This document shows positions 8,302 to 60,124 of a stretch of DNA of 64,000 bases, piece after piece. Origin of the DNA: Vermamoeba vermiformis (lineage: Eukaryota); NCBI GenBank assembly GCA_045837725.1, contig JBEWZL010000270.1, positions 124,001 through 188,000 of the forward strand. The letters run 5' to 3'. The notes under the pieces were generated by a model, which worked only from the letters and a program-made list of their open reading frames with translations, made no database searches and was not told the origin of the DNA. How positions within the stretch are numbered: the first letter of the stretch is position 1; every line of letters begins with the position of its first letter. The translations under genes and the position numbers were made by a program.

Positions 8302-10508
8302 TTACAAAACTTCTTCAAACCTCGTCTCTTCCGTTGGAAAAACTCCTGCGGCTTCGAAAAAGGCTTGAAACTCTTCATCGCTATGCGCACTAATCGGTGC
8401 ACTATTATTCGGGCTTTCGTGAGAACCAGCACTATCGCTGGCACTTTGAACGTGAGATCCAGGACTCGGACTAGAACTTGAACTCGGTGAACTAACGTCT
8501 CCAGATGACGCCGCAGATGTTACTGGCTGTGGTGTAACGATCATAAACGAGGTTCCAATGAAATAGAAGCCTCTGCTCTTACAAACCATGTTCACCGCCT
8601 AAGATCCAAAAAAAGTTCGTTAACACTAGCATATTCAAAGTTAAATATTAAGAAGTTCGCGAACATTCTGATCGTAATATATAATATAGAAATTTCCAGC
8701 ATCAGTCAAAAAATTCTAAAGTATATTCCAGCTGTGATCCGACCAACGAGACACAAATCAATTGCAGCTGTGCAACTTAACGAACTTGTCATAATAACTT
8801 ATATATAGAAACTTTCTATAGCACTACTTACCCTAAATATTTTCGCAGCGCGGTTTCGATGTGCTTGAGTAGGCAGAGCTCTAAAATTGGTGATAATCTC
8901 TCCTTTCAAAAATTCATATCGATCATTGTCGTTGACTCGTATCGCTAGTTCAGCTTCAATGGCGTAAATCCAAATCTTGAAAGTATTGAACCACGTGTTG
9001 TATTGGAGTGGTTGTAAAGCTGCGTCAAGTTGTCTCAGATTTGCAATCATGCTACTATAAGAGCTAACTGCGTTAGTTCCGTATTTAAATAGGTAAGTGC
9101 ATCGTAATTTGCAAAAGAAGGTTCAATCGATGATTTTTCAGTGCGGATGCCGCATAATTAGATCTAATCCCGTAAAAGAACTTTCAACCAATAGTTGAAC
9201 CAAAATCTTACTTGAAATGTTGGACCGTGGCATATTCTTCAAATAGTAATAACGATAGAATGTCGAAAATTTGGAATCTAATGTAGTCTATCAGATGTGG
9301 CTGGGTCGGTTGCGAATAATATTTGTTTTGCCATTTTATCCTACTTTCTTGGTCTCTTGCACTGACCATAAGCGATCCATAGGTACTATAAATGGTTATA
9401 AATTAATATTCGTGGATTAAACTACGCTAGATCAACTTACGAAAAAATTAAAGCTGGATCGAGCTTTGCATCGTGTAATTGGACGATTTGTTGCAAGAAT
9501 CCCATGGCAGTAGTATATGCAGCCAATTTATCACTCATTTTTAAGTAAGTGCTAAAGACCACTAAATTACTAATCATTTTCGGGGCAAGCACGCTGTTGA
9601 ATTGAACTCCTCGTTGAAAGAATAGCGCCATAATGATATTAAGTGCAAATTCCGTCATGTCAATAGGCACGATCGTCTTATCTTGAACGAGCTCGCCTAG
9701 TAAATTGCTAAAATTAGCCACATCTGTCAAAAATTCTTGTGTGGATCGTAATCTGCTTACCAACTAAGAATACATTAATCCAAGATAATATTTCAACAAG
9801 ACCCTCTGTATTGCATTGTTTGATGTATTGCTCCGAATATTGTTTGCTGAATGAACTGAGCATCTGCCAGGTAGTTTCTTTCGATCCAATCTGTTGCTTT
9901 AATTGTTCGTAATTTGCATCAAAATAACTGCACATCCATCGACCAGCATCTTCATATGCGTCTATTAACTCTGACGCGTGGCTCAATGGCAGTGGGGATC
10001 GTGAAAGTTCGCTTGAGGGCACCTGCTCCTTATTTAGTAAAATGGACGAAAGGCATTACATTGCATGATAATTAAAGTCATATTATAAGGTAATTTAATA
10101 TTTAATATTATTATAAATTATTAGCGCAACAGAATCATGTTCAGCAAAGCTCAAATAATGGATTTGTTTTTTTAAATTCATGCATTAAATTATGCTTACC
10201 GGAGATAAATATTGTATTAAGCTTTTTTCTAGTGCTTGTATTTGAAGCTTATAATTTGTTAATTGTTGCTCTAAACTTTGAATTTTTAGCTGGGCGGGAT
10301 CCGCGTTGCTGTTTTGTTGAATTATTGGTGCTGCTGCAGCATTTAGCGTGTATCTTTTTCGTCTATTTGGTAAATTATATGTGCATGGAGTATTATGCAC
10401 GAGGCATTGATCGCAAGGAATTGCGTTGTTACATCTGATCTTTTTCAATTTACATCGATCACAGGATCTAACCGTCCGCAGAACAGGAACTATCGCCTGT
10501 TGCGACAT
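8302..10508 (-). CDS. Zn(2)-Cys(6) binuclear cluster transcription factor, paralog 3
   Basis: SCDRCKLKKIRCNNAIPCDQCLVHNTPC; LFFQRGVQF; last exon KSRGFYFIGTSF followed by a Ser-rich/acidic tail. Confidence 0.9.
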
Positions 10509-11052
10509 ACGTGTCTTGCTTGTTTCACACCTATAAAATAAAGACAGAATAGTTTTTTTACTCCAAACGGGATTGTTGTCACGAGGCGGCCTTTTTTCGA
10601 GTTTTTTTGACTTTGTCAGCGACTTCCGCAACGCAGCAAAGAAGCAATGATATGTTAATAGTGAGATAAGCCTTCACCGCGCAACGCCGGTCCGCTTTCT
10701 TGCTACTTTAGATCTTCGAGAAAAGCCTCCCTAAACGGAAAGGCAGCGGAACAGTTTTTCGGAAGTAACTTCATTCTGCTGTTAAAGCAGTAATTCACGA
10801 ATATCCGGCATGCCGTTTTTTAAATGATTACTTCAGACAAAAAGCGATTGAATTCGAAAACAGATCCGTTCGTCACTGGTGTTTGAGAAGCATGTTGCTA
10901 TTTTCCCTCCGTAATCGAATTTAACATTCATTTTTAGACTTATTGCATGAGGGTTGCCGCTTTAAGTATTGACCTCCATTAAAAAATATGCTTTTTTTTT
11001 GTCACACTTGTTCTTGAGTCCACCGGTGCTGTGTAAATATTTGTAATATATT

Positions 11053-33054: not shown

Positions 33055-36000
33055 ATGCGTGAAATCATCTTATTTCTTGCCTTGTGCACAGGTAAATGTC
33101 AAATAATACGACAATAATTACTGGAATAATATAACAAAAAATATTAAATTTAGGCTTCATTGTTTTGTCCTGCGCAAGTGCAGATGCGTTTCAAACTTTG
33201 AACGCAGCAACTGTTGTGAACACAAATGAAGATACATTTATCGATAGTGCAGTTCAAGACGAAGACTTCCTTTACTACGTCACTTTATTTAGTCCTGTCA
33301 AGGTTGGCAAGCTCAACAAAACGCAACTCGCGACGCCTGGATGGAATGGAGCTTCTGTCTCCCAACTAAATGTTTCCAGTGCAGATACAGTAGCATTTAG
33401 TTTGTTGTATAAGGATAGCAATTCGATCTTTTTGCAAGGACAATCAACAACGTATCTACTCTCTTCCACGAATCTAGCTCTTTTGAACACCCGCGTTGGC
33501 GAGGAGATAAACTCATTGACTGGATTTATTAGCGAAGATAGCAATGGTATCTCGGTTGTTAACTTATTTGGCTATGCAGTGCAAAGGGCCCTTCAGATTC
33601 GGCTTGACGATCCATCAATGAACGACACCGCCGTTTTCGACATCCCTTTCACTGACACCCAGGCGTCATCATATTATCACCCGAATGACATTGCTATATT
33701 GGCCGATTTCTCCTCGACATATGCCGTTTACAAGTGGAGCACAAAAGATTTGCTTTTAACTTTCAAGATTCGAGATCAGTCCACTGGATTTATTGTGTAT
33801 GATGGCGCAACAAACGTTCTTTATACATGCGGAGATCGCCCGTCCGGCGAATTTGCCGTATTGACGCGAGTAAACCTATCCAACATCCAAAACAACACCG
33901 AGATCTCCGTTTCCATCAGCGTAAGCACGTGCGAAAGAATGTAAATTGTAATTAACCATTTATAACATAGCTCGACAGTCCTTATTATTCTTCTGAAGCG
34001 GTTATTGCGCAAGCGATTGGTGAAGAATTCTTCGCGTCAACTTGCAGAGGATTGGCTTTACATCCAAGCGGACAACTCCTGTACGCCCTCTATGACCCTC
34101 CTTCATCATCTGGACAAATAGGACGGTACGTTTTACTGCATTGTATGATTGTTTTGGAAGCTTATAACTTTGTCTCAGAGCTATCGCATCCACACTAGAC
34201 ACTGTCGAAACAACGTCCGTGGACGCAAACGTCTCTCAAAAAACTATGAGCCTTCTACTTGAGGCTGATCAGCCCCTGATTTATGTATTCACCGAGACTG
34301 ATGTTGCAGTCGTCAAATTTCCGAGTAAGAACTCCTCGAAAGAATAATCCCTCAAACTAACCATCATGTTTAGCCACCTATGATTGCCCACGTGACTGTT
34401 CAAACCACGGATATTGTAATTCAACGACGAAATATCTTTGTGTTTGCGATGATCCCTATTTTGGTCACAACTGCGGTACGTACTAGATTTGGATCCTGCA
34501 TTCGGCTGACAATTTTTTATTCATCAGAGAAACCTACTCCAATTGGACCAATTCCTCCAGTAGCGCAGCCGCTATATGAGCCTATAAGACTACTAGGACA
34601 ATCAGATATCAATCCAAATATCGGATCTGTTGCCGACGACGAATATATTTACTACTTTACCAACTGCTCGATAAGAATAGGCAAAGTCCGAAAAGCGGAT
34701 ATAATCTCAAGTACGAAAACTCCGTCAGTTTTCACTGAAACTGTCGTCGAAGATTTTGGCGTTGCTATTTCGCTGATTGACACGCAACTTGGATTGATTT
34801 ACTTCATTGGTGAAACTAACTGCCAAAGTAATTGGGACCCGAATCATCAAGCTAAGCTAATTAGAGTTTCAACGAGCAACTTTACGGATCACACCGTCAT
34901 GGATCTGTCAAAGGGCATCACCACAGCGTTCGTTAGCAATGATACACAAGGCTCAACCTACCTTAATATGTTTGGATGGCCAAATTATTTGCGCTTAAAG
35001 TCATCTAAGAGCGATAACCCGTTACAATCATTTCCAACCTTGCGGGCAGATGCAGCGCCGATCGCATCCACATTTTTGCCCCAAAAAAACACCGCCATTA
35101 TCGTTACCGAATATCCTACTTTGCACTACAACTTCAACACTGGCAATATTACTCATTCGTATACCCTTCCTAGTGACTTTACAGCAAAGTCTTTGGCGGC
35201 TGACGAAGAGCGCGGCAAACTGTATATCGTCGGAACAACTTCTACGGTAAAATTTTAACCATGAAATGTAACTACGAGCCGGTTACTAATAATTTTGCGT
35301 TATTATAGGATAATTGGTACTTGTTAGTTTTGACGCCCGAATTGCTTCCATATGGCACAAAGCTTACTATGGTAATGAAATATTACTTACGACTAACGTA
35401 CTAGTACGTTAGAAAGTTTTTTTAACTTGTTTTCATAGAACGGATCTGATTACTTAGAAGCGATTTTTATAAGCACTGGTTATTGGATCTCGCCTGTTGG
35501 GCTATTTTTGGACCTTGAAGCAGGTCAAGCTATAATAGGGCTAAACCAAAAGATTATTAGGTAATATTTATTTTTCGCGGATCGCGATGCTCGATCTGTT
35601 CCACATCGTTGTCTTTCATTTAATATTAACGTTTATTACAGATTAAATCTTTTGACGCACGAAGTATTTGATACTGCCGATTTGTACTATCAGTATGGCT
35701 TATCTCTTTGGGGTGCTCACTATCATTATGAAGTTGACACCAGAACACTGTTCATCACTGGATCTAACGGTACTCAAGCAGTTGCAGTTGCTTTTTACAT
35801 CCCAAGTAAGAACCTCTCAATTAATCATATCTAATATTATTGACACGAAATAACGTTGTTTAGTGCCGTGTCCTCGAAACTGCAGTAGCAATGGTCAATG
35901 TATGTATGGTGCTTGTCAATGCGACGACGGGTTCACTGGCGAGCAGTGCGATGAAAGTACGTCAAGCGCAAATTTTTAACCTATTATTAGAATAAGAATA

Positions 36001-36273
36001 TACGGGATATTATATATTTTGCGTTAATACTAATGAGTACTTCGTAGTTGTTGTTCCGCCCGTTGCTGAAGAACCAGTCGAAGGTATTTTTTATTCTTTT
36101 TATCAATTTTATTCGAGTTATTCGCTTACATTTTCGTCTACAAAACAGAGCCTGTTGTTGCTCCCAATGCTGCAATCCCTATTGCAAACATAGCCAGTAT
36201 GGCAAGCTTAATGACTCCCTTGCTTGGCTCGATTGCTATTATACTCGTCATTGTCAGTGTTACTGTCGCTTAA
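33055..36273 (+). CDS. Secreted/GPI-like surface protein with two beta-propeller-like plus EGF-like modules
   Basis: Signal peptide MREIILFLALCT/GFIVLSCASA; two beta-rich regions, each followed by CPR(D/N)CSxxGxC...CxC..GxxC; hydrophobic end LLGSIAIILVIVSVTVA*. Confidence 0.75.
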
Positions 36274-36371
36274 ACGTTACATAGGCACGAATTTTTCGTG
36301 CGCCTTTTCTGCTGCAAAAAAATAAAATTTTCGTTTTTCCCTCGTTCAGTAATAATGCATACAATATTGTA

Positions 36372-37701
36372 ATGGAAGACACATATGACTGCGTTATACT
36401 CGGCACCGGTCTTACTGAATGCGTGCTGTCAGGTTTATTATCCGTTGAAGGCAAGAAAGTTTTAGTTCTCGATCGGAACAATTACCAAGGAGAAGATTGC
36501 GCTTCATTAAGTTTAGAATCGTTATGGAGCCATATGAGTGAAGATGAAAAATTGGATGAAGCAAAACTCGGGCGTAACAGAGACTATAATATCGATTTAA
36601 TTCCTAAATTTTTGATGGCGAAGGGTAAGATCCAATTACAAGCGATTTAATTGATAATTTGATTTTATTTATACTTAATACGCAATATAATACTGATAAT
36701 CAATTGAATATTCGATTTTACGATTTTTCGTAATTTTTTTAACGACAGGAAACCTCGTCAAACTTTTGCTTCATACACAAGTCACGCGCTATCTCGAATT
36801 CAAGTCCATTAATGGCAGCTACGTGCTTAAAGATAAGAAGATCCATAAAGTACCCGCAACAGAGACTGAGGCTTTGACTTCGGGGCTGTTGGGTCTTTTC
36901 GAAAAGAAGCGATTCAAAGATTTTCTTCAGTATTGCTCGGAGTGGAATGACGACAATCCGAAAACCCATGCAGGTATGTTTATTTTTGTGGATAACCCTA
37001 GATCCTGAAAAAAAAATTCTCGATCGGATCAAGTCACTGTTGTTTTGCAAGAACCAACCTTTTAATGACATAATTTTTACAGGAATTGATATGGAAGTGT
37101 TACTATTCCTAATAGACGAGTGGACCGTATTCTATATGACGAGAAAGGACGCGTCTGTGGCGTTGAAAGTCAAGGTGAAGTAGTCAAGTGTCAAAATGTC
37201 ATTGCACATCCGCACTACGTACCATCAGAAAAAGTTCAACCAGCTGGCAAAGTCGTTCGCGCAATTTGCATATTAGACCACCCGATACCAAATACTAAAG
37301 ACGCCGAGTCATGCCAGATAATTATTCCGCAGAATCAAGTCGGCAGAAAATCTGACATTTACATCTTATGCGTGTCATATGAAAACCAAGTCGCGCCACA
37401 AGGAAAATATATCGCAATGGTGTCAACTACTGTCGAGACCAACAACCCAAATAAGGAATTAGAACCTGGCTTGCAATTGTTAGGACCGATTCTCAAACAG
37501 TTCGTGTCGGTCAGTGACATGTGGGTGCCAGTCAATGATTGGCAGCGAGAACATCTCTTCATTTCCAAGTCGTACGATGCCACGTCACACTTTGAGACCG
37601 TTTGCGATGACATTCTGCGCATCTACAAGCAATACACGGGTCACGACTTTGACTTCTCGAAGTCGCACCGTACAACGTTAGAAAGCAATACTAATGAGTA
37701 G
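36372..37701 (+). CDS. GDI1: Rab GDP-dissociation inhibitor, disrupted as assembled by an internal deletion and frameshift at ~37090
   Basis: YDCVILGTGLTECVLSGLLS, RDYNIDLIPKFLMA, VTRYLEFK, SCQIIIPQNQVGRKSDIY and SKSYDATSHFET are all present. The conserved central segment is absent. Confidence 0.93.
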
Positions 37702-37964
37702 ACCAGCCCTCACCTACCTGCTTTTGTAAATAAATAAACCACACTGCTGTATATTAATCGCCCAGCGTCTTACGGATGCTCGAACTATGATTCCGCTTTT
37801 GCAATGCGTCCGAACGAACCTAAATATAGTATATGCGTAGACCATCTTCGGAGTGAAAGAGGCAGCAGTAACTACGCAGTTAGAACCACGCGGTGAAAAA
37901 TGCAAATTTCAGAAAATTTTTTGAATTAGTTTTTTTGAACAGAACGAACACACCAAAGCAAATT

Positions 37965-40879
37965 ATGGAGGAAAATTCTAAAAATACCAACAACGTGACT
38001 GCTATTGACGGTAATTACTGGATGTTTCTCCTCAACGGTTCAAATTATTCGGTTTGATTTATTATTTTTATTTACGATTAAATTTTCAAGCCATTATTTA
38101 ATTCGTTTATCATTCAATATGCACTCGATATGAATTGAAAATTGGAATTATTTAATAAATCGTTAACTGCAGATAAAGATGCACTTGATTGGACGATTGA
38201 CGAAGTTGCTAATTGGGCACGAGAAGTCTTAAAATTGTCAGAAACAAGTGTCCAATATTTAGTAGACCAACAGTTCACCGGAGGAGCACTTTTAGCGATC
38301 CCAAGCCTTCACGCGCTAATTCACGTTTATGGATTTCCAGCAGATCCCGCAGGAATTTTGTGGCCTGCAGTCGAAACACTAAAGATGGCGCACTTGCAGT
38401 CAGGTACATTGCCTCATGCTTGCTTCAAAACATCTCACTCACTTCTACCAAAAGCTCGAAAGCGAACTGTAAGCGAAACAGATTTTGACCAAGATCATCC
38501 TTCAAAACAAGGTATGTTCGTTCAAGTACTTTCATGTACACTAATTTTTTTGTAGGAAGAGTACCACAAAGTAAGAATCAGCTTCTTGTTGGTAAAACAT
38601 ACTTACAGCTTTAGTTTTTATTTTTGTGGATAAATGCATCATCAATGAGGAAGACTTTGAGTTTGAAAACAGAGAAAAAGAGTTAAAGGAACTGGTTGAA
38701 GTATGTGTGTTCAACCAAAAAATTGTAAGAGCATGTTCTGGTACCCACACAAACAAGCTGAAGTTGGCAATTGCATCACAGATGATGGGATCAGGCAAAA
38801 CATGGTTTGGCAGACATGCACTTAAATCTTTGGAGCAACACAAAATGGTGATCAAATCAAACTATTTGGATGAACTTGATAAAACAATCATAGAAGATTT
38901 ATCTATGGCACACTATGTCTTTGTGAACATGAAAGATGCAAATGCAAAGCCATACAACAAGCATGAGTTCTGCAGATTTCTGCTACAGAGTCTTATTTTG
39001 TCATGTTCTGGCGACACCAAAACAAAGGCTGTTAATGAATGGCACATGAAGGACATTTCCATGCACAGTATTTCAAGTATAGCCCAATGGTTCCAAAATG
39101 AATTGAACTCTCATCTCTTCTTTCATTTTGATGAAGTTGACGCAATTGCAGAAGCATGCAATGTAAGTAAAAAGTTAACCATACAAATTACAGTAACACT
39201 GTTGCAGATGAGTCTAAAACCAGAATCAAGCCAATTAGCATGCTATTACAAATTTTGGAATGATATCAACCCACTTCATCAATTTGGTTTTATCTACTGT
39301 TCAGGACGATCACCTCAGCTTTTTTTAATTGGTCAGCACAACTTTGGGGTAGGAGACTCCAGAGTTGTTCCTCCTGGTCAATCAAAGCACATGTTTTTTG
39401 ACAGGTTGCTGTTGACAAATATTAATAACATGGTTTCAAAATGCATTCAAAAGGGCAAATTGGACTTGGAGCCTAGTTTGAGTGCAGCAGAGGTGTCAGA
39501 TGTCATATTCAATTGCACTGCAGGAGTACCACGTTTTGTCATATATACCTTGAATTACTTGGCTGAACTGTCAGCAAAACAACCACTAAGCAAAAAAACA
39601 CTGACAAAAGAAAGTTTCTTTCAAAGCCTATTTAGTTATGCGAAACAAAATGGAGGGGAAGCAGAACTTTATTCATGGCAGACAGATTACAAAGACATCT
39701 ACTTTCAACTTGTACTAGATGCCATACTAGCTGTCCCATACTCCATTGCAGATGTGATATCAACTGATTTGCTTCCAGTTAAGAATGTGCAATTGCTGCA
39801 AATGATTTGGCTAGCTGGAGTGTTTACTGCAAAGACCCCTCAGTATCTGGTATGTCAAGTTCCATCATGAAGCATTACTAACAGAATGTTTGAAGCCCAC
39901 TGGAATATCTGGAGAGTCAGTCCTTAAAGATCAACTCTACATCATTGTGCCACCTCTTGTTGCCAATGCTATGCTTGGCTCCCTAGAAGCTGCATCTGTG
40001 CTAACCATAGCTGGGTTAGGTGAAAATTACACCCCTGTGCCTGAGTCAGAACTCTTAGAATACATTTGCAAGCAGTGCTTTACGAATCAGCTTTGCACAA
40101 AGATAGCCAATCGCAGAAGAAATCAAATGTTGCACGGTTTGTTTCCATTTTTGAAACAAACTATCTTACCAGACATTGCTGCTCAGTTTGAAAAACCTTA
40201 CTACTTGCCAAAATTTGTGAATACCCAGTAAGATCTGGCCCAATATTTTTATTGTCTAATAGTTTTGCACAGAGCAACAAGTTGGAAAGCTGAGAATGAT
40301 GAGAAGGTGACAGAACTACTTAAAACACAATACTCAGAAGCCAAATCACAATCACTTGAGGTGCCATATGAATACTGGCAGCAAATTGTACCACAGTTAC
40401 AACAGGGACTGTACATCCCTGCACAGAAATCTTTTAGTGGCAACTTTTATGTTGTGTTGCCTGATGCTTCAAATGGCAACAAACTTTGGCTTTTAATTTT
40501 CCAATACAAAGCTGGGACCAAGCAAGAGCTCACAATCTCATCAATTTGTGAAGATATTTACAAATCATTTGACCACAACATGATAACAACACAACCAGAG
40601 TCCCCAAACACAAAGTTTGTTGCTGGAGTTGTGCTAGTTTTTGTTGGTGGCAATTATCCTGCAGAATTGCAAACAGCATGTGAAGTTTTCAATGACCATG
40701 CATTAAGACTATCTATTGCTAAATTGATTGAACTACAGAAAGCAAAAGATTTAAAGAAAGAATCTAAAACTGATGCCAATGAGAGAAAATTTGGGTGGAA
40801 AGACAATGCAAATTTGGAAGTACTCCTGCTTAACAACCGAGGAAAGAAACACTTACTTAGTGCCTTTCATGTTAGATGA
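37965..40879 (+). CDS. Crinkler/RHS-type protein: SAM header, P-loop NTPase and a degenerate restriction-endonuclease-like C-terminus
   Basis: DWTIDEVANWA...LVDQQFTGGALL (SAM); FENREKEL; SQMMGSGKT (Walker A, ~38790); FFHFDEVD (Walker B, ~39125); TAGVPR; YIPAQKSFSGNFYVV...LLIFQYKAG (REase-like QxK). Confidence 0.7.
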
Positions 40880-40925
40880 AATCCAATACTTGAAGCAATC
40901 TTATGGCTCTTGGCATATTGTCCAT

Positions 40926-42637
40926 TTAAAGTTTTATATTTGCTTTTTGCAAGATAATATAAGCCCAACGAACCTAAATAAATACACGAGTTAGACTCGG
41001 ATCCAGAACGGACGAACACGAACGAAGTTAGAACTTTGCAAAAGCACAATAAAACCAGTATACATCGATAGTTATATTGTTTATAGTTGCTTACCATTGG
41101 CATATCGATCATTTTTCCATCAACTTCGAAGGCACCTTTGCCGGACTGTTGATGCAAGACATTAGCTTCGACTATCTTCTTAGCAAATGCAATGCTCTCT
41201 TCTGGGGGTCTAAAACACTCGTAGATGACCGAGACTTGATTCGGATGAATGGCTTGTTTGCCGTCGTAGCCTAAATTGTAACCCTAACAAGATCCGATTA
41301 AAAATTTTGGCTCAACGATTTTAATTCCAATAATATTATATTATATCAATATATGGCATAAACGTAATATTGTTAATTATAAGGCCTTACTTGTTTGCAT
41401 TCGAGTCGCAACTGATCTTCGTCTTTGTAATGGATGCAGACCATGTCAATTGCACTCAAGCTGAAGCATGGCAATATTAATACGAATAATGTACGTATAT
41501 GTAATGTATTTGTAATGCCGTACCGATAAGCTTTGGCGTGCGTTACTATGGCAGATCTTATGTACAATAATTCTTCTCCAGTTTTAGTTCGTGTAACGCC
41601 CAAGTCTGCGCTATAATCTTCGCTTCCAAACTAACGTAATATTATTATAACGTTATAATTCTACGAAATTTGCTGGCAAAGAGCGAAAGTGACTTACGAT
41701 CAGTCCATCCACTCGTGGAGCTCGACAGATCTCTTTCAAATTCATAACAGCCTTTGCTGACTCGATGCACGCGAGGATTTTTATACGTTTGTTGGTATCA
41801 CTGCCTTTAGTGCTCAAATAATTATCGACAAAGGCCACATCCTCGGCAGTATCAACTTTAGGCAAGACAATCGTGTCTATTTTATCAAAAACTGGTGCCA
41901 TAGCGTCTAAATCGGCTCTGTGTTATAAAATACATTAAATATCAAATTAACGATTCTACAAAGCGAACAAAAAGTCTGAAAATATTAGATCGAGGAGATC
42001 TGAACCGGTTAATTTGCGGTGTCCTCACTGAAAGATAGAACAATACTATAACGTATATTTTATATGCTTATCGACTTACTTTTCGAATCCCGATCGAACT
42101 GAGTTCATTCGCAAGCACCGTTCGGTTGAGCCAAAATTTAATTTGGTAAATGAGTCGCGGATCATCTGTCTAGCTTTATCTTTTTGGTTTATAGCAATAC
42201 CGTCCTATGAATATTATCGTAACGATTAATTTAGTTTGTTTCTAAGGAAATATTTTTTCCGTACCTCGAGATCGAGAACTATGCAATCAAGTGGAAGGCC
42301 AGCAGCTGGTTGAATATTTTTAAGTTAATTATTTTAACACTACAAGAAGATAAATAAGCATATTTCAGCTCAATAATGATATTGCAAATAAATTAAAAAT
42401 TTGTTTTTGCGAATCTGCTCGTATATTCATACCTTTGGTAATCTTTCTCTCATCACTGCCTGGTACGTTAAATAATACTCGTCGTGGTTTTCTGTTTTGA
42501 ATCTTTTTGATGTCATTATCAACGAACGAAGTGACGGTTGAATAGCCGCATTTGTTCCCACGCGCCAAATTCTTATTTGCTCTATTTAGAGCTGTATTAA
42601 TGCCTCTATTGAGGAGTGTGCGCGTGTTGGTCAGCAT
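40926..42637 (-). CDS. CLYBL: Citrate lyase beta-like / citramalyl-CoA lyase (HpcH/HpaI aldolase family), with a mitochondrial presequence
   Basis: PRRVLFNVPGSDERKI, DCIVLDLE/D, IVLPKVD, LACIESAKAVMNLKEI, FGSEDYSADLG, AIDMVCIHYKD, GKQAIHPNQV, GAFEVDGKMIDMPM. Confidence 0.92.
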
Positions 42638-50743: not shown

Positions 50744-53700
50744 TTAATACTCTTCACCATAATAATCATCGTGTTCCTCATCATAGCCATCGTATCCTTC
50801 ATAAACTTCAGCGCCTCCACCCGCATCTTTGTTGTAAATCAAGGTCATTTTTGGCGGTGCTGCTTTTCCTGGGCCTTTGCCACCAAAATGCACGATATAC
50901 GTAGGCAAGATTTGATCCATATTAAATATAACCTGTTACACAAAGATAAATTAGCACCACATCCAAAACGCGATCCGCTCGAGCGAAGTTGATCCTGATT
51001 TTGATATAGGTAAACTTACAATCTCGGAGCCATCAGGTGACGAATGACTATGATATCCTGGTTTTAATTTGCAGCCGAGTTGAACTTTTGGCATTTTGAA
51101 TGTGTTTCCAACCAACACTTGGCACAACAAAAACCGAGCACCACCAGCATAACTCATTGAAACGGCCGGTAATTCTGAGAAGTCTAGGCAAGCATTAGAC
51201 ACCCATTGCACTATCATAGTGATCTTACATATTCCTGCGCCGTAGTAGCCTTGGTCAGTGCGAGATCCAACGTGATCCAAACTGAAATTGTTTTCAATAA
51301 TATTCGATATATTTTCCGGGCTCGTGCCATGAAAGCATAATATAGGTTTAGTTTCTATCGATAATAATATTAATAAGAGTAGTTATGCAGCAGGTTTTTC
51401 AGATCTGGTACTTACGTTCCCAATCGATTTCTTGTGCCATTTCCAGCCTTCTCTTTTGAAATTTCGCTATTAACTTCGGATTGACAACGTATTCGACTTT
51501 AGTAACTTTAGAATGACTGCCTTCCATCAGGCGATAGAATTGACTTTCGGCCATCCTACGAACGCAAGTCATTTTAGCCAAGTCATTTCATAGCGGCATT
51601 TACGTGAATTTATATAATACTATAATAAACCTTTGTTTAAAGATGTAACAGAAAGTGAAATAAAACGATAAAAAAAAAATAATCAAGTCGGATCCGATCC
51701 GCAGATCAACGAAATAATTCGATAAGCACATTATTGCTATATTATGTATATGATTGTTTTTGTTTACCTGAAGTGGATCGTGGATGCGTCGTTTTCGAAC
51801 CGAGTTGAAGGATACAAGGAGAATATTTTGGTCTTATTGCCCTTCAACGCTTCTTTCTCGCCCGGCAAATACAATTTGGCCTCTTCTTCCGCATCAAGGT
51901 GTTTCTTATTTGAGCCTACTAGTCGCTCCGCTTCTTCTTTTTCTTTCATCAGAATTTTAATGATTTCTTGTTGCGCTTTTGTGTCTTCTTCCGCCCTAAT
52001 TAGCAAGCATTAATGATCATTTTCAATGAGTATTCGTAAGTGTGCTGATGACACGTGTCACGTCAATGACGGTTCCACTGAATTTTTTTTACGTTCGAAG
52101 TTTCGATGTGACACGTGTCATCAAAAGTGTCATTATTGTAAAGGTGATTGAAACGTACCTTTGTTTGTCTCGTTTGTACCGTTCCAATTCTTCGTATAAT
52201 TTTACAATGTCTTCATCTTTCTTCTCGAGAGGTTTGTCAGCTCCGTTCAAGTTGTTGTTCGCATTCGAGTCTTCTTTCACGTCAATATTTACAATGGTTT
52301 TATCGCCCGACTTGCTAATAGCCTTCTTATTGTCATTCTTATCCACCTTATCACTATTTACATTACTATTGTTATCGCTGTCATTCACTTTTTCTTTCGC
52401 GGCGTCGTCGTTTTGTTCTTGTTGATGACTGGCTGGCCAAAAAATCGTTAAATCACGTGACTATAATTCATGAAATAACATACCAGTCAAAAGATATTCA
52501 AGTGCTTGTTCAATATTATTGGCTGCTTTAGTCAAAGCAATTTTGATTTGCCGTTCAGTCACGTCAGGTAAAATTCCTTTGATCGTCGAAATCTGTTACC
52601 AAATTTAGTCAAAATATTTCCTTATTTGGCAATGAATGCATGATACGTACGTGATTGGCCTCTTCATTGTCCAATTTCATTTTCTTGGCTTTTTGTTCTG
52701 ACTCGGCTTCTTCCAATTTTCGTTTTTTGCTTTGCGGAGAATTAGAATCCGATTCTTTAATCTCCGCTGTATTTTTATCTTCTTGATTAATTTTTGCCTT
52801 TTCATTTTCATCTTGAAGAACTGTTGGCTGGCGTTTAGCTTTGGCCGCGTTATTATTTTTGAGTTCAATTTCGGGTTCGCTGTGTTCGGGTGTTTTGGGC
52901 TCTTCAATTTCACTCACGTCCATTTTACCGGTCTCAACGAGCATGTATCCGTGAAGACCTTGAGACCTACGTTAATAACCATAATAGTTGGAAGGCTATA
53001 ACATACCTGGTAAGAATTGAATCGTGTCGTCAAGTAGCAGCGGAACAATTTTTCCTTTAGTCAATTTAAATTCTTCACCGGTCTCTTTACGAATAATTTT
53101 CGAAGCATTACTGCCGATCTAAAAGAGTTTTTGTTAGTATTTCCTTTTTAGGCAATGACCAAACTTCAGACTTACGAGCTTCACATTGACTCGATTCTTT
53201 TCGTTTGTCTTATGGATCTCTAAATGCTGTCTGCTTAATCGATTGTCTTCAATGCCTGTCAGTCCTCCTCGGCCCAGAATAATCGGCAAATTGTTCATGA
53301 AATTCAACGGGATCGGTGCTCCTTCTCCAACTGGAATCAGTCCGAAGTATTGTTCGTTTGACATCTCCGTTTTCTTATCGCTATTTTTAGCATCGTTTTT
53401 AGCGCTTGAAGGCTTGTTACTATTGGCATTCGCGTCTGATTTTTTGTCGTCGGGCTGTTCTTCCAGATCCGGATCTCCGTTTTTTGCTTTGACGAGTTTA
53501 GTAGGCGCGTTTTGCAATAGTTTTTCTTTCAAATCGAGCATAATCATTGGATGTAAAAATCCAGGTCGTTTTCTATTGCCTTTAGTCTCGCAGTCCATTA
53601 GCATCTGAACGAACTGCCCTGGAATACTTTTGAATCCACAAGCTGCACCAATCATTCCGCCGACAATACATGCATTCGTATCTGTATCACCACCTGCTGC

Positions 53701-55214
53701 TATTGTTTCTTTTATAGCTACCTCGTACTTCGTTCCATGGTACAAATGTCTGAGAAAAATAATCACGTTAACCAAGCGCATTACAAACTCAAAGAAAAAA
53801 TTGCATAAATTTGACAATAATAATTTCAAAGCGGTTCAATTTCGATGAAATATCATCTGTGCTGAAAATAAGTATGCCAAAGTGTCATACCTGAATGCGT
53901 GACTAAAGCCAATCTTGACCCAGCCGTGCTTGTCTTTGGGCATGGAAGAACATTCTCTTCCTTCTTTAGCCTCCTCAAGCCAATCAACGACATCACTCGC
54001 CGCGTGTTCTTTGGCCCAATTATACGCCACTTCAAATGCGCCTTTTCGGTCATTTGGTTTGTTCATCAAGTGTGCTATAGCGAGCACGTAACATGCGCAG
54101 CAGTGAGTACAAATTGGGTGTGGATGACTCAGCGCACTTTCTTGTTGCGCGATCATTGCCAAGTCGTCAACCGACAACTGTGAAAAAATGAAGATATTTT
54201 TAGATACGCAGCAGAAAAAACGAGTAAATTATTATTGATAATAGAGCGTACCTTATGACCCCAAACAGCCAATGGCGTCATGCGCATCAAACTGCCGTTC
54301 GATTGTGATTTTGTGCAGGCACGACTGGCTCTCAGCGTCATTCCCGCTCCCAACCTTCGGACAAAATAAAGTTAATTCTCCGATCAATCGCAATTTTTGG
54401 CACTATATTGAACAGATACTAGATTTCAATTGGTTGCAAAAGATGCTCGGAGCGGATCCGAAAGAAAAAGTTCTCTTCCGTAGCTTGTCTTACCCTTTTT
54501 CTTCGATCACAACTTGCAATGCGGGGTCCTCAAAGCACGAAAAAGCAGCAATTGTAGTCTCGCCGCAATCAAATGGCTTTGAAGCCAGCCACCTGATGTA
54601 CGATTTGGCTATCTTGTCCGTGTCAAAATCTGTGCTCTCGGCCAACGCACTCGCCAGTGACTAAATATGGTAATTAATTAATTAATATTATTAATGGTAT
54701 TCATATATGATATTAACGTACTATTGTAAGCTCGCCGTCATCGGTAATTTGACCCGCAGATAATTTCCAATAGCCGCCGCCTTTCATCTGTGACAATAAT
54801 ATGATTAATTTTATTATGATTAGTTTTCGTTAAATATAAATATGTTATTAATACGCACTTCAAGGGCTCTTTCGACTTCATCTTTCTTTGGCTTGTGGCC
54901 TGCAAAAAAAAAATCGTTTCAGCGCCAAACTCAGAATGAACATCACTTAAAATACGTGGACCACGATCGCAAAATTAAAGTAAAAAGGGTAATCCATATT
55001 ACTTAGTAACAGACAGCTGATTTAATTAAATTAAATCGTCTTGCAGGAAATTTTAAAACGTTGAAAATGAAAATTATGGATCAATATTTAGCCAAAAATT
55101 ATAATACATTAATGGAGTATTTTTACCTAAAAATTCCAGGTAAGATCCGATCGAATCTCCAATTAGCGCGCCAAAAATTGCTCCAAGAGCCACATCATCT
55201 TTTTTGTCACTCAT
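50744..55214 (-). CDS. ADP-ribosylglycohydrolase - FHA - UBA-like - PARP-like ADP-ribosyltransferase fusion protein
   Basis: ARH motifs GALIGDSIG, GQITDD, SNGSLMR, SHP and GGDTDT; FHA IILGRG...IEDNRLSRQH; UBA-like IKIALTKAANNIEQALEYLL; ART motifs CFHGT, YYGAGIYFSE, SMSY, LLCQVLVG, DGSEI/VIFNMDQILPTYIV. Traced through canonical introns without finding a stop. Confidence 0.8.
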
Positions 55215-55782
55215 TGGCTCAACTCCTCGTGAAAATCACGAAAAGTATCGAGTTGTGGTTCTTCTTCGAAATTTAGATGCGAAATGGATCTTGCGCGTGC
55301 CACAAGCTCGATTATTTTTGACGCGCAGTATCCAGCTACACAACACACCTTATATTTCAGACTATAATAAGGCGCATGATAAATTTAGGGTTGATAGTCG
55401 ACTAAAGTCGTAAAGACCACGAGATCCTACACCGTTTTGCAAGTATGTAACTATAAGCCTTAAAAAAATCGGATTAATGCTGTCAATTTATTTATCGTTC
55501 ATATCGAGCTTATTGGAACGAAAACTCTTCGTGGAGACGAATTAAAATTAATTCTCAACGTTTTGTTTCGCAAGCTTAATAATAACATTTTAATGTGCTG
55601 CCTGTTAATTAATGCAGTAAATTTGGTAAATTATTTATCTAGCTGTCTCGTAAAAACATTTTTGCAATGTGAATCTTTACGGAGCACTCGTTACCGCGCG
55701 TAACAATGTAATTGCGATATCTTATAACTAACGATTTTTTCTATCGAATATTCTAGAAAATTGAATTAATAAGAAGCAACAA

Positions 55783-56728
55783 ATGGAAGGAGCTGGGCCG
55801 TTACCAATTATACGGATCATTGCCTTATTGACCTTTCCTATCTCTCGCTTGATCTGCTTTATACTACTGCGAGTGAAAACTAAAAATAAGAAGGCATTTT
55901 CTGCACGAGCACCAAAGTAAGTGGTTAATCATGCTTCTAGAAGGCTCATCTGGATCGAAGCTAATTTTTTTTTGCTTCATAAATTATCAAATAATTAAAT
56001 AATAATATTTAGGGATATAATTTTAATGGTGCTACGAATATTATTCGTTGCCGCTGCAATTACCGTCGCTATTCTTTCATTTGCAATTGCGGACCAGATG
56101 TTATGGACTCAAATCATTGTAGATCAGGTACTTTTGATGCTCTTAGGCATTAATGGCGAGTACTAATATTATTTCATGTTTTCAGACCAGTACTATTGTT
56201 ATGCTTTCAATTGGTTTTGCAATTATCGTGTTGGCTGATATTTTAATTCTCGTGTCCGGCTTCAAACTGGCAAAATCAGCTAAAAACAAAGAAATGACCG
56301 TAAGTACTAATATATTTTATACAATATTCTAATAAAACGCCAGTTTTAAGCCAAATTTCTGTATCGGATCTAACATTTTTTTGTAGTTGGTCACCAAGGG
56401 TCCATATCGCTTAATGCGCCATCCAATGCACGGTGCATTTTTTGTATTTATTGTTGGAGCATTCATCGTGCGATTGAATTGGTTTTTCGACCTGTTAATG
56501 CTCGTCAGCTGGGCGATCGGTTTGCTCGAATTGCCTAAAGAAGAAGAGTCGCTTGTTTCATGGTACGGCGAGGCATATATTCAATATAAAAAGAAAACTG
56601 GAGCACTTTTGCCGTGCCCTGTCCTCGATTGCGGAGTTTCAAAGGAAAATGCAGAGTGGATCGCAGAAAATCGTGTTGATACTCAAGTTGGATTACTTCC
56701 CTCGATGACAGAGCTTGAGGATGATTAA
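55783..56728 (+). CDS. Isoprenylcysteine carboxyl methyltransferase / PEMT-family membrane protein
   Basis: Hydrophobic N-terminal exons; LVTKGPYRLMRHPMH; EEESLVSWYGEAYIQYKKKT. Confidence 0.85.
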
Positions 56729-58361: not shown

Positions 58362-58574
58362 TTAATCGTCCTCGTCATTAACATTGGTAGCGGTTTGAGT
58401 TCCACCAACTGCGCCAGGGGTTTCAGATCCAACAGGCGTACCATCAGCGTAATACGCTCCTGAGCCAAAGAAGTCGCTGTCTAATCCATCGTCTGGTGAA
58501 GCACCGCTTACAGCTCTATTTAAGGCTGTAGTACTTTTCGGGCCAGGTTGCCCCCCTTTTAACAGGTTACCCAT
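58362..58574 (-). CDS. Small 70-aa Gly-rich protein with a possible N-myristoylation site
   Basis: MGNLLKGG...NDEDD*. GC-richer than its flanks, with an AATAAA downstream on the minus strand. Confidence 0.55.
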   Translation of the reverse strand: MGNLLKGGQPGPKSTTALNRAVSGASPDDGLDSDFFGSGAYYADGTPVGSETPGAVGGTQTATNVNDEDD

Positions 58575-58691
58575 GCTGGACGTGTTATCGTATCAAGAAA
58601 TATTTAGATTTATTGCGGGACTTATTTTGCATTATTTTTTCATTTGTGCCAAATCGGGGTTCGGTTTCGAATAAAATTTTATCAACTTTAG

Positions 58692-59245
58692 TACTGTAAA
58701 CTGCCAAATAACTGGCAAAAAATCGGCAGCCAGCGATCAGCGCGCGAACAAACAAAAAATTCAATTTAGCAATTTCAAATAATTATTATTTATATATACA
58801 TATATATTCAAATAGTTTTGATGCTAGCCGACAAATTAAAGCAAAATTTGTTACCAAATCCGCATCGGGGATCCGTGTTTTCTCATTTGTACACACAATG
58901 GTTGCGGTGCTTTTGCTACATATAAATATATATAAAGATATATCCCACTTTAATTGCAAAATTGAGCAAAAGTTGCACAAAAATTGCAAGATGCATCCGT
59001 TCGTCATTGCAAGTTTTAGCACAGTCTCGCACAAATTTACACGCGATATTCACGATTCTCTGTACTAAATAGATACATACATCAAATCGTGTGGTCTTCA
59101 TGCAAAACGATGCAGCTTCTGTGCAGAAAAATGCAGAATAAGCACACTTGCCGTTCTTGCTCCGCAAAATAATTTTTTGTCGCCAGCTGGAATCGAACCC
59201 TGGCGCAACCTGCACTTTGTGCCACTTATTCAGCAGTTTACAGTA
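58692..59245. mobile_element. Non-autonomous TIR element (MITE) of Tc1/mariner-pogo type with TA flanks
   Basis: Left end TA|CTGTAAACTGCCAAATAACTGGCAAAAA; right end (reverse complement) TA|CTGTAAACTGCTGAATAAGTGGCACAAA; 24/28 identical. About 550 bp, with no transposase. Confidence 0.7.
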
Positions 59246-60124
59246 TCGGATCCAAAACGAATTCCGCTTGATTTTGATTTGTATAATACGACCAAGAGCA
59301 TATTACTCGTAAATTAGTTATCAAGAAAACTGGTAAGCGTTTTCCAGCCGGAACGAAGATGAAGCGCAAATTATTCATTACGGCAGTTTAATGACGTAAG
59401 TAATATTAAATTATATTAAGAAATGATTTACTTCCTCAATCTATCTAAATCAAACGTTGTGGCGGTAGTAATAATTTTTGGTGTTACTAATTTAATTCAC
59501 GCAAAATTCGATGTATGGCTCGATCGAGCAAATAAAACTCTGACACAATCGGCCCATATTAAATTGTAATATTTGGATTAATTATCAATCCTCGTTGCGT
59601 GTATCGTAATTAAGAATAGAATAATATTTGAAATTATTAACGAAATAACGATTTTGTGATCTTGATAGGAAATTGCTCGTGCCTATTCTACACGCGGGTG
59701 GAGCTGAGCGATGGGACACATTAAGAGGAATGCAAATTAAGCTCGCAGATTTAATCCTAAGCAGCCTATTCTTCCAGGCTTTCAGCGAAGAACGCTTATT
59801 AGCAAATCATTTATTGAAGGACCTGAAGAACCTTTTCAGGCACAGCTAGAGAAGGTGCGCCACTTATCCGTTCAGTCGCCTCCTTGCAATTTATGTTTGG
59901 ATGTGAGGTACGCGATTGAAAATACTCCACTAGCCTCTTCAAACAATCTAATTTAGTGGGCATAGGACGATAAACCAGTTAACCAGTACTTTATCCCTAT
60001 GGCTTGCGTTTTTGGATCGTTATCCTGTGTTGTTGGGCTACAGCGATTTCGCGTTACTGGAACATAAATTTGATTTGAAGATTTTATTTACATTATGTAC
60101 AAAGTAATGGTTGCTCATATACGA

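Follow-up and report, generated by a model that had tools for sequence, protein, structure and literature searches.

How does one short stretch of an otherwise CpG-rich genome come to lose nearly all of its CpG dinucleotides while the gene that it carries stays open? The question is raised by a locus of Vermamoeba vermiformis (assembly GCA_045837725.1, contig JBEWZL010000270.1), which we analysed within a window of 64,000 nt (contig positions 124,001 to 188,000, forward strand); all coordinates below are positions within this window. Between 38520 and 40968 lies an island almost devoid of CpG, which encodes a complete module made up of an AAA+ P-loop nucleoside triphosphatase (NTPase) and a restriction-endonuclease-like (REase-like) region, interrupted by three short introns of host type. 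An earlier note, made by eye from the sequence, had attributed the depletion to cytosine methylation targeted at this locus or, alternatively, to recent arrival from a CpG-poor source. Our analysis leans towards a version of the first reading, in which CpG methylation within the lineage was aimed at the module alone and was followed by long deamination under purifying selection, in a process that is either ongoing or has just ended.

A sharply bounded CpG-depleted island

The window as a whole has a GC content of 38.9% and a CpG observed/expected dinucleotide ratio (o/e) of 1.22, which becomes 1.26 when the island is left out. All other stretches of 2449 nt, the length of the island, contain 90–142 CG (median 118, sd 10.1), placing the island, with its 9 CG, approximately 10.7 standard deviations (sd) below them; the comparison with the flanks that the earlier note had proposed as a check thus finds the island far beneath its surroundings. 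The five longest CG-free gaps in the 64 kb (703, 493, 442, 225 and 166 nt) are all internal to the island, the longest gap elsewhere being 148 nt, and outside 38001–41500 the minimum o/e of any 1-kb stretch is 1.01. The earlier note had counted about 10 CG in about 2.4 kb and had described CA and TG as abundant; both observations hold for the interval that it considered (38540–40960), which contains 9 CG (o/e 0.105) and has o/e values of 1.57 for TG, 1.53 for CA and 0.57 for TA. Its description of the neighbouring genes and of the upstream, SAM-like exons as normal in CpG content was likewise borne out, by the counts in the other stretches of the window and by exon 2, with 14 CG against 16.1 expected.

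The limits of the island were set by the nearest normally spaced CGs on either side, at 38519 and 40969; the nine CG inside it lie at 39012, 39141, 39307, 39532, 39641, 40083, 40112, 40135 and 40838. In bins of 100 nt the number of CG falls from 4–5 to 0 at 38520 and is back up to 6 at 40920–41019. The left edge, a step within an intron, is sharp to within a few tens of bases; the counts place the right edge only in the range 40839–40968, because the stretch 40880–40968 would hold just 2.5 CG or so at host density. An 8-nt near-palindrome that spans both flanking CGs was dismissed, as the edges are defined by those same CGs. The island and the predicted gene across it have the following parts.

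38520–40968, no strand: CpG-depleted island; 2449 nt, 9 CG, o/e 0.10 for CG, 1.56 for TG, 1.54 for CA and 0.57 for TA
37965–38010, + strand: putative exon 1, with the ATG start of the SAM-like frame; normal CpG content (2 CG); placed by a splice-phase model
38173–38511, + strand: putative exon 2, SAM-like; normal CpG content
38512–38608, + strand: putative intron 2 of 97 nt (GTATGT...CAG); the island begins 8 nt into it, past the CG at 38519
38534–38570, + strand: possible alternative first exon, internal to the island; ATG at 38534, donor AAA|GTAAGA, 38-nt intron to 38609
38609–39162, + strand: exon 3, in which the conserved module starts; FENRE, Walker A GSGKT (38788–38802) and Walker B HFDE (39124–39135)
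39163–39207, + strand: intron 3, GTAAGT...CAG, 45 nt, 0 CG
39208–39849, + strand: exon 4, remainder of the NTPase and a helical/winged region
39850–39895, + strand: intron 4, GTATGT...AAG, 46 nt, containing TACTAAC, 0 CG
39896–40227, + strand: exon 5, encoding a linker and the N-terminal portion of the nuclease-like region, including the conserved E582
40228–40272, + strand: intron 5, GTAAGA...CAG, 45 nt, 0 CG
40273–40879, + strand: exon 6, REase-like core (strand-strand-helix-strand), QxK at 40502–40510, stop at 40877–40879
40880–40968, no strand: 3′ flank, 0 CG (expectation at o/e 1, 2.0); probably shared with the convergent neighbour at its 3′ end

A mutational signature of CpG decay

Approximately 100 CG are missing from the island, and the loss is mirrored by an excess of 72 TG and 74 CA that is symmetric between the strands. 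All eight NCG/CGN trinucleotide contexts are depleted, so that the conversion of CpG to TpG or CpA suspected in the earlier note is plain in the counts. TpA is not raised, its o/e being 0.57 in the island and 0.81 in the flanks; because TpA is depleted, classical repeat-induced point mutation (RIP) was excluded as the source of the signature.

The depletion affects each exon of the module, with observed over expected CG of 2/18.4 in exon 3, 3/24.1 in exon 4, 3/14.3 in exon 5 and 1/21.4 in exon 6. It also extends to the 314 non-coding nucleotides of the island (part of intron 2, introns 3–5 and the 3′ flank), which contain no CG where approximately 8.1 would be expected at o/e 1 (Poisson P of about 3e-4). 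As the depletion reaches introns and flank, its cause must be mutational and not a matter of codon choice. At the protein level, positions at which a relative has Arg and the island model has Gln, His or Cys occur nine times, versus two for the reverse, in pairs that are non-independent and drawn from protein relatives at most 55% identical.

Gene structure and continuity of the DNA

The module is encoded by three abutting open reading frames (ORFs) on the + strand, 38596–39870, 39815–40231 and 40232–40879, which canonical introns of 45, 46 and 45 nt connect without any stop, in agreement with the earlier claim that the frame remains open. Intron 3 is itself in frame and stop-free, which is why exons 3 and 4 appear as a single ORF of 424 residues; intron 5 is also in frame, its sole stop being the TAA of its GTAAGA donor. 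The SAM-like exons can be connected in phase to the module through the 97-nt intron 2, giving a model of 839 residues, and on the basis of this splice phase it is plausible that they belong to the same gene. A stand-alone model that starts at the ATG at 38534 and uses the 38-nt intron is equally open, and the SAM frame would then stop 14 codons beyond exon 2. The assignment of the upstream exons to the SAM class is itself weak (Pfam SAM_PNT, E=0.027; 14.9 bits, where the cut-off is 24), and the best Atlas clusters for them, SAM at 0.85, provide a lead only.

Sequencing reads support the continuity of the locus. In DNA run X1, a unitig of 759 nt covers 37879–38637 with 0 differences and so bridges the left edge, and depth ranges from 461 to 980 over all 30 of the 30 bins, in the island as in its flanks. 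The assembly may itself have been built from this run, which limits the independence of the evidence, and none of the 8 pieces listed, out of 73, crosses the right edge. The bridging unitig and the even depth argue that the island is not an assembly chimera, an outcome that the earlier note had named as one that would overturn its reading.

The same run contains clusters of 3–6 variants per 40–80 nt at about a quarter of the depth across 36000–42500 (for example, at 37098–37152, 40511–40586 and 41890–41955), which points to a second haplotype, nucleus type or strain in the DNA sample. Among the rows listed, minor-allele variants number 5 in the island, about 20 in the left flank and 13 in the right flank.

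Host-like composition of the island

Apart from CpG, the island DNA looks like host DNA. When 20 long host ORFs from the window were decayed in silico by converting 92% of their CpGs to TpG or CpA, they closely matched the coding sequence (CDS) of the island, with o/e values (decayed ORFs/island CDS) of 1.54/1.53 for CA, 1.62/1.63 for TG, 0.11/0.11 for CG and 0.61/0.52 for TA. Over all 16 dinucleotides, the mean absolute difference from the island CDS was 0.068 for the decayed host ORFs and 0.222 for the undecayed ones. The GC content of the decayed ORFs was 36.7%, compared with 38.4% for the island CDS, and adding back the lost CpGs brings the latter to approximately 43%, against 41.5% in the host ORFs.

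Codon usage tells the same story. The share of NCA codons in the island matches that of NCA plus NCG in the host for Ser (.44/.41), Pro (.54/.56), Thr (.53/.52) and Ala (.54/.52), and among 13 tests on codons that CpG decay cannot touch none survives Bonferroni correction, the lowest p being 0.011 (Tyr). Arg is encoded in the island by 11 AGR and 4 CGN codons and makes up 2.1% of residues, compared with 4.0% in host ORFs; the host AGR share of 37% implies approximately 30 ancestral Arg in the island, equal to the host's 4%. The introns of the island are about as short as the shortest of 18 candidate host introns (46–195 nt), and their donors (GTAAGT, GTATGT and GTAAGA) resemble those of the host candidates (GTAAGT, GTAAGA, GTGAGT and GTATGA).

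Signs of a mobile or foreign origin were sought in several ways. No repeat pairing the edges (38520 with 40839–40968) was present among the 20 of 45 direct-repeat families and 25 of 94 inverted pairs listed; the inverted pair nearest to the edges, I6, has its left arm within the CpG-normal exon 2. Pattern scans with the window ORFs, and with the relatives' alignment on viral DNA, recovered no viral or metagenomic relative, the protein libraries searched contained no close donor, and the 64-kb window holds no second copy of the module. The match of the remaining composition to the host favours targeted methylation within the lineage over a distant CpG-poor donor.

The encoded module and its relatives

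The AlphaFold model of the first 424 residues (predicted local distance difference test, pLDDT, 79.4) has an AAA+ ATPase fold, and both the Walker A (GSGKT) and the Walker B (HFDE) motifs are intact. Foldseek matched this part to 2v1u, 2qby, 2qen, 2fna and TnsC chains with E values from 6e-6 to 3e-4, at 11–15% identity and template modelling (TM) scores of 0.3–0.44. The last exon is predicted to fold as strand-strand-helix-strand (pLDDT 70.4), and the Foldseek matches of this C-terminal core, which are weak (E 0.05–1), are mostly nucleases: McrC, BamHI, EcoO109I, OkrAI and Cap4. A wide VIA-align search with the C-terminal model gave unspecific matches with Z at most 5.2 (FokI and AspBHI 4.1), and a profile of the relatives' alignment found nothing below E=0.17 among PDB sequences.

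The C-terminal part contains a family motif, S-x-S-x-[D/N]...Q-x-K...E-x-x-K. At the Asp of this motif, which is present in 24 of 26 aligned relatives, the island has Asn (AAC after GGC, 40442–40444), a change of the CpG-transition type; given Asn at the putative catalytic position, the nuclease of the island copy may be impaired. A second CpG-type change has placed Gln (CAG, 40088–40090) in exon 5 where 23 of 32 relatives have Arg.

Relatives of the module are rare: a search of 1.84 billion representatives gave 77 matches at E<=0.001, of which the best are fragments 52–55% identical; a word-index search added two relatives of similar length and none that was longer. Their alignments begin at residue 139–157 or so of the model, often from their own residues 2–40. 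The relatives thus come without the SAM part, and the island, which begins 90–140 nt ahead of the start of their N-terminal alignment, coincides with the conserved unit. In the Atlas the module family is mostly from Mucoromycota (15 members with known phylum), a placement that the Rab GDI gene of the host does not match, and the neighbours of the module there carry ATPase_2, AAA_22 or nSTAND1.

The earlier note had labelled the gene 'Crinkler/RHS-type', a label that no family model supports. The island protein has no Pfam, NCBIfam or PADLOC family match (AAA_22, at E=0.049, falls below threshold), a Pfam scan of 20 of 20 longer relatives found no family at E<=0.001, and PADLOC and NCBIfam returned 0 families for two window proteins and 7 relatives. 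Only the layout, an NTPase with an REase-like region, is alike.

Possible selection during decay and its timing

Three signs, each of them weak, suggest that purifying selection acted on the protein during decay. In 5000 simulated runs of neutral decay, with 92% CpG loss in host-like coding sequence of 710 codons, the sequence acquired on average 3.4 stops and 58 amino-acid changes, and 5.6% of runs were free of stops. The CG that remain in the island are distributed over codon positions 1–2, 2–3 and 3–1 as 4, 2 and 3, against expectations of 17.7, 41.7 and 52.6 (Fisher p=0.036), and two of the four retained CGN codons encode Arg residues conserved in the family, both in exon 4: the CGA of CSGRSP (39307–39309) and the CGT of GVPR (39532–39534). 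Lastly, a change of the CpG type is found in 2 of 78 conserved columns, versus approximately 6.4 expected (P of about 0.05), and 59 of the 78 columns are intact.

The residual dinucleotides also bear on timing. The island contains 5 CG outside Arg codons among 445 TG plus CA sites, which allows at most 1–2% or so of transition divergence since hypermutability ended. With almost no CpG regenerated, either the hypermutable state persists or it ended, or the module arrived, very recently.

Explanations of the depletion

The explanation to which we give a modest preference is one of targeted methylation within the lineage. Dense CpG methylation would have been aimed at the module alone, either at its present locus or at a paralogous source copy, the treatment that genome defence gives to genes that are selfish or repeated. 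Prolonged spontaneous deamination of 5-methylcytosine would have followed and removed the CpGs, converting approximately 92% of those in host-type module DNA to TpG or CpA, while purifying selection would have kept the protein; the hypermutable state may still hold or may have ended very recently. We infer both methylation as the cause and its targeting of the module. In the earlier note's proposal, the part that can be read from the DNA stands, namely the signature, its extension into introns and flank, its restriction to one gene and the host-like composition; 5-methylcytosine enters as the presumed agent.

A number of points weigh against this explanation. The repeated or selfish character of the target is surmised from the type of protein, the window holds no paralogue, and read depth has no sign of a collapsed repeat. 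One would expect a module that had been methylated for so long to be silent, a state hard to square with purifying selection, and the three selection signals are individually slight (p 0.036, 0.056 and about 0.05). Tyr, His, Asn and Asp are mildly shifted to C-ending codons, which could hint at a different origin, and the composition tests are weak against a donor with host-like GC content and codon usage. Finally, the Asn at the putative catalytic Asp suggests that the island copy may not be fully functional.

Recent horizontal arrival, in which the module came from a CpG-poor organism or virus and was inserted downstream of the SAM gene, would make the edges of the island the edges of the insertion. 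We regard it as unlikely but as an alternative to be taken seriously, for it accommodates the step inside an intron at the left edge, the equivalence of the island with a homologous unit whose relatives are without the SAM part, the rarity and distance of those relatives and the near absence of regenerated CpG; the smaller number of minor-allele variants listed for the island than for its flanks is a hint in the same direction, and a hint only. It is harder to reconcile with codon usage and a dinucleotide profile equal to those of the host plus CpG decay, with three introns of host type in signals and size, and with a GC content that, once CpGs are restored, is near that of the host. Neither terminal repeats nor a target duplication were found at the edges among the repeats listed, and the scans and libraries mentioned above yielded no viral or metagenomic relative and no close donor. 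An assembly chimera or contaminant join would account for the abrupt compositional break, yet it is barely credible given the unitig across the left edge, the even depth, a splice phase compatible across the edge and codon usage like that of the host.

The remaining alternatives concern the process and not the source of the DNA. An enzyme-driven, homology-triggered burst of CpG hypermutation on a duplicated copy, similar to RIP or to methylation induced premeiotically (MIP) but specific to CpG, would make the edges those of the duplicate. The coincidence of the sharp edge with the module fits such a burst, as do an o/e of 0.10, lower than is usual for gradually decaying coding DNA, the Arg-to-Gln (40088) and Asp-to-Asn (40442) changes, both of the CpG type and both at conserved residues, and the halving of Arg, with AGR counts that fit a loss of CGN codons only. 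However, a neutral burst would be expected to leave the stops and amino-acid changes seen in the simulation, conserved Arg CGN codons and most conserved columns survived, and the window has no second copy; we therefore consider it improbable. A further alternative, which is very improbable, dispenses with methylation: selection itself would have removed CpG, for instance because its loss lets the gene evade silencing or sensing directed at CpG. It would explain why the depletion is limited to one conflict-type gene whose function appears to be retained, but the depletion is equally strong outside the exons, with 0 CG in the 314 nt of introns and flank, and symmetric TG and CA gains that approximately match the loss point to mutation pressure. 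To our knowledge, no CpG-directed silencing or sensing system has been described for this host.

The targeted methylation that we favour has a bolder form, which we consider doubtful: a system directed by homology or sequence, acting through CpG methylation or through hypermutation specific to CpG, might mark single conflict-gene modules with base-pair sharpness while they are spliced into, and selected within, a host gene. One part of such a gene, the SAM exons, would then be unmethylated and another, the NTPase-nuclease exons, permanently methylated, with a tenfold difference in mutation regime between them.

Relation to known systems and significance

Targeted, sparse methylation of transposons and acquired viral genes is already documented in protists whose genomes are otherwise weakly methylated: according to excerpts of the two reports, Acanthamoeba has 1.3% mCG, located at repeats and heterochromatic regions (PMC12344493), and viral insertions are hypermethylated in a protist (PMC11244446). 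The excerpts do not report islands of CpG decay. The present locus shares with these cases a single discrete segment, conversion of CpG to TpG or CpA and cargo of a conflict type. It differs in that its target is an apparently single-copy, intron-bearing module of 2.4 kb with host-like codons, which shows hints of purifying selection and may be joined by splicing to unmethylated upstream exons; methylation is here a presumed cause.

Two other mutational systems invite comparison. As in fungal RIP, C-to-T hypermutation is limited to one sharply delimited segment. RIP raises TpA through the conversion of CpA to TpA, whereas in the island TpA is depleted, the target is CpG in all contexts and the frame is intact. 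As in the mosaic gene-body methylation of invertebrates, the depletion takes in the introns as well as the exons of a transcription unit and ends close to where the unit does. In those animals housekeeping genes are the CpG-depleted class; here, in contrast, the housekeeping Rab GDI gene is CpG-rich, and away from the island and its edges no 1-kb stretch of the 64 kb has an o/e under 1.0.

With regard to the protein, the NTPase part resembles in its predicted fold Orc1/Cdc6, archaeal ATPase_2 and TnsC-type AAA+ ATPases, but identity to these is low, no Pfam family is above threshold and the partner is nuclease-like and not just the winged helix of an initiator. The predicted layout also resembles that of Crinkler-RHS-type (CR) toxins, with a P-loop NTPase followed by an REase-fold domain behind a separate N-terminal header; in these toxins, according to an excerpt of PMC5289972, a layout of NTPase, helix-turn-helix (HTH) and REase makes up over a quarter of C-termini. 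Unlike those toxins, neither the island protein nor any of the 20 of 20 longer relatives has a Ubl/LxLFLAK Crinkler header by Pfam; the putative header here is weakly SAM-like, and the conserved Asp of the nuclease motif is Asn. With no Crinkler header found, CR membership is not supported by this comparison of layouts. A CRN-like ADP-ribosyltransferase of teleosts (PMC12957317) and prokaryotic systems (PMC7159879), as they appear in excerpts, have no bearing on the locus.

What sets the locus apart is the sharpness of its edges, the fact that one intact, intron-bearing gene is affected and the possible division of a gene into unmethylated and methylated parts. If our explanation is correct, sequence alone would have revealed a present or recent cytosine-methylation system in an organism otherwise without a methylation footprint, and one aimed at a single NTPase-nuclease conflict gene. 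Local steps in CpG o/e could then serve as a cheap marker for the targets of genome defence in unsampled eukaryotes, and the island would provide a concrete locus at which to measure methylation and silencing, the splicing of a transcript across a methylation boundary, and how selection acts when CpGs are hypermutable.

Flanking genes and other features

The upstream neighbour encodes a Rab GDI (Pfam E=3e-79). The best named relatives of a GDI fragment, at 54–60% identity, come from an echinoderm, a hemichordate, sponges, corals, Balamuthia, a Physarum transcript and a chytrid, with two others at 69–70%, which marks the host as a eukaryote with few sampled relatives. In two RNA runs that carry the same species label (X10 and X12), 29 and 14 reads fall on exons of GDI and a neighbour at 95–99% identity, with fixed differences (37090–37700, GDI exons) that point to a diverged strain or sister species; these two small runs contain no reads from the SAM exons or the island, and no splice junctions are listed for them. 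A 2017 DNA run with that label gave no match, which is no proof of absence. The downstream, convergent neighbour is similar to HpcH/citrate lyase beta, with a weak C-C_Bond_Lyase match, and may end in the following exon.

40926–40973, − strand: candidate terminal exon of the lyase-like neighbour; reads VRWAYIILQKANIKL-stop after a GTAAGC intron and overlaps the island by 43 nt

Its translation presumably corresponds to the C-terminus of the HpcH/citrate-lyase-beta family. The stop of this candidate exon lies 46 nt from that of the island gene (40877–40879, + strand), a spacing at which the 3′ ends of both genes would have to overlap, making antisense transcription into the island conceivable. 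Elsewhere in the window, GpC o/e reaches 1.6–1.8 in 1-kb windows at 9501–11000, 55001–56500 and 58501–59500, compared with approximately 1.25 overall; a tandem-repeat scan found nothing relevant to the island and nothing that would account for these GpC-rich windows. An ORF at 53134–53835 on the − strand encodes the end of an ADP-ribosylglycohydrolase domain together with an FHA domain.

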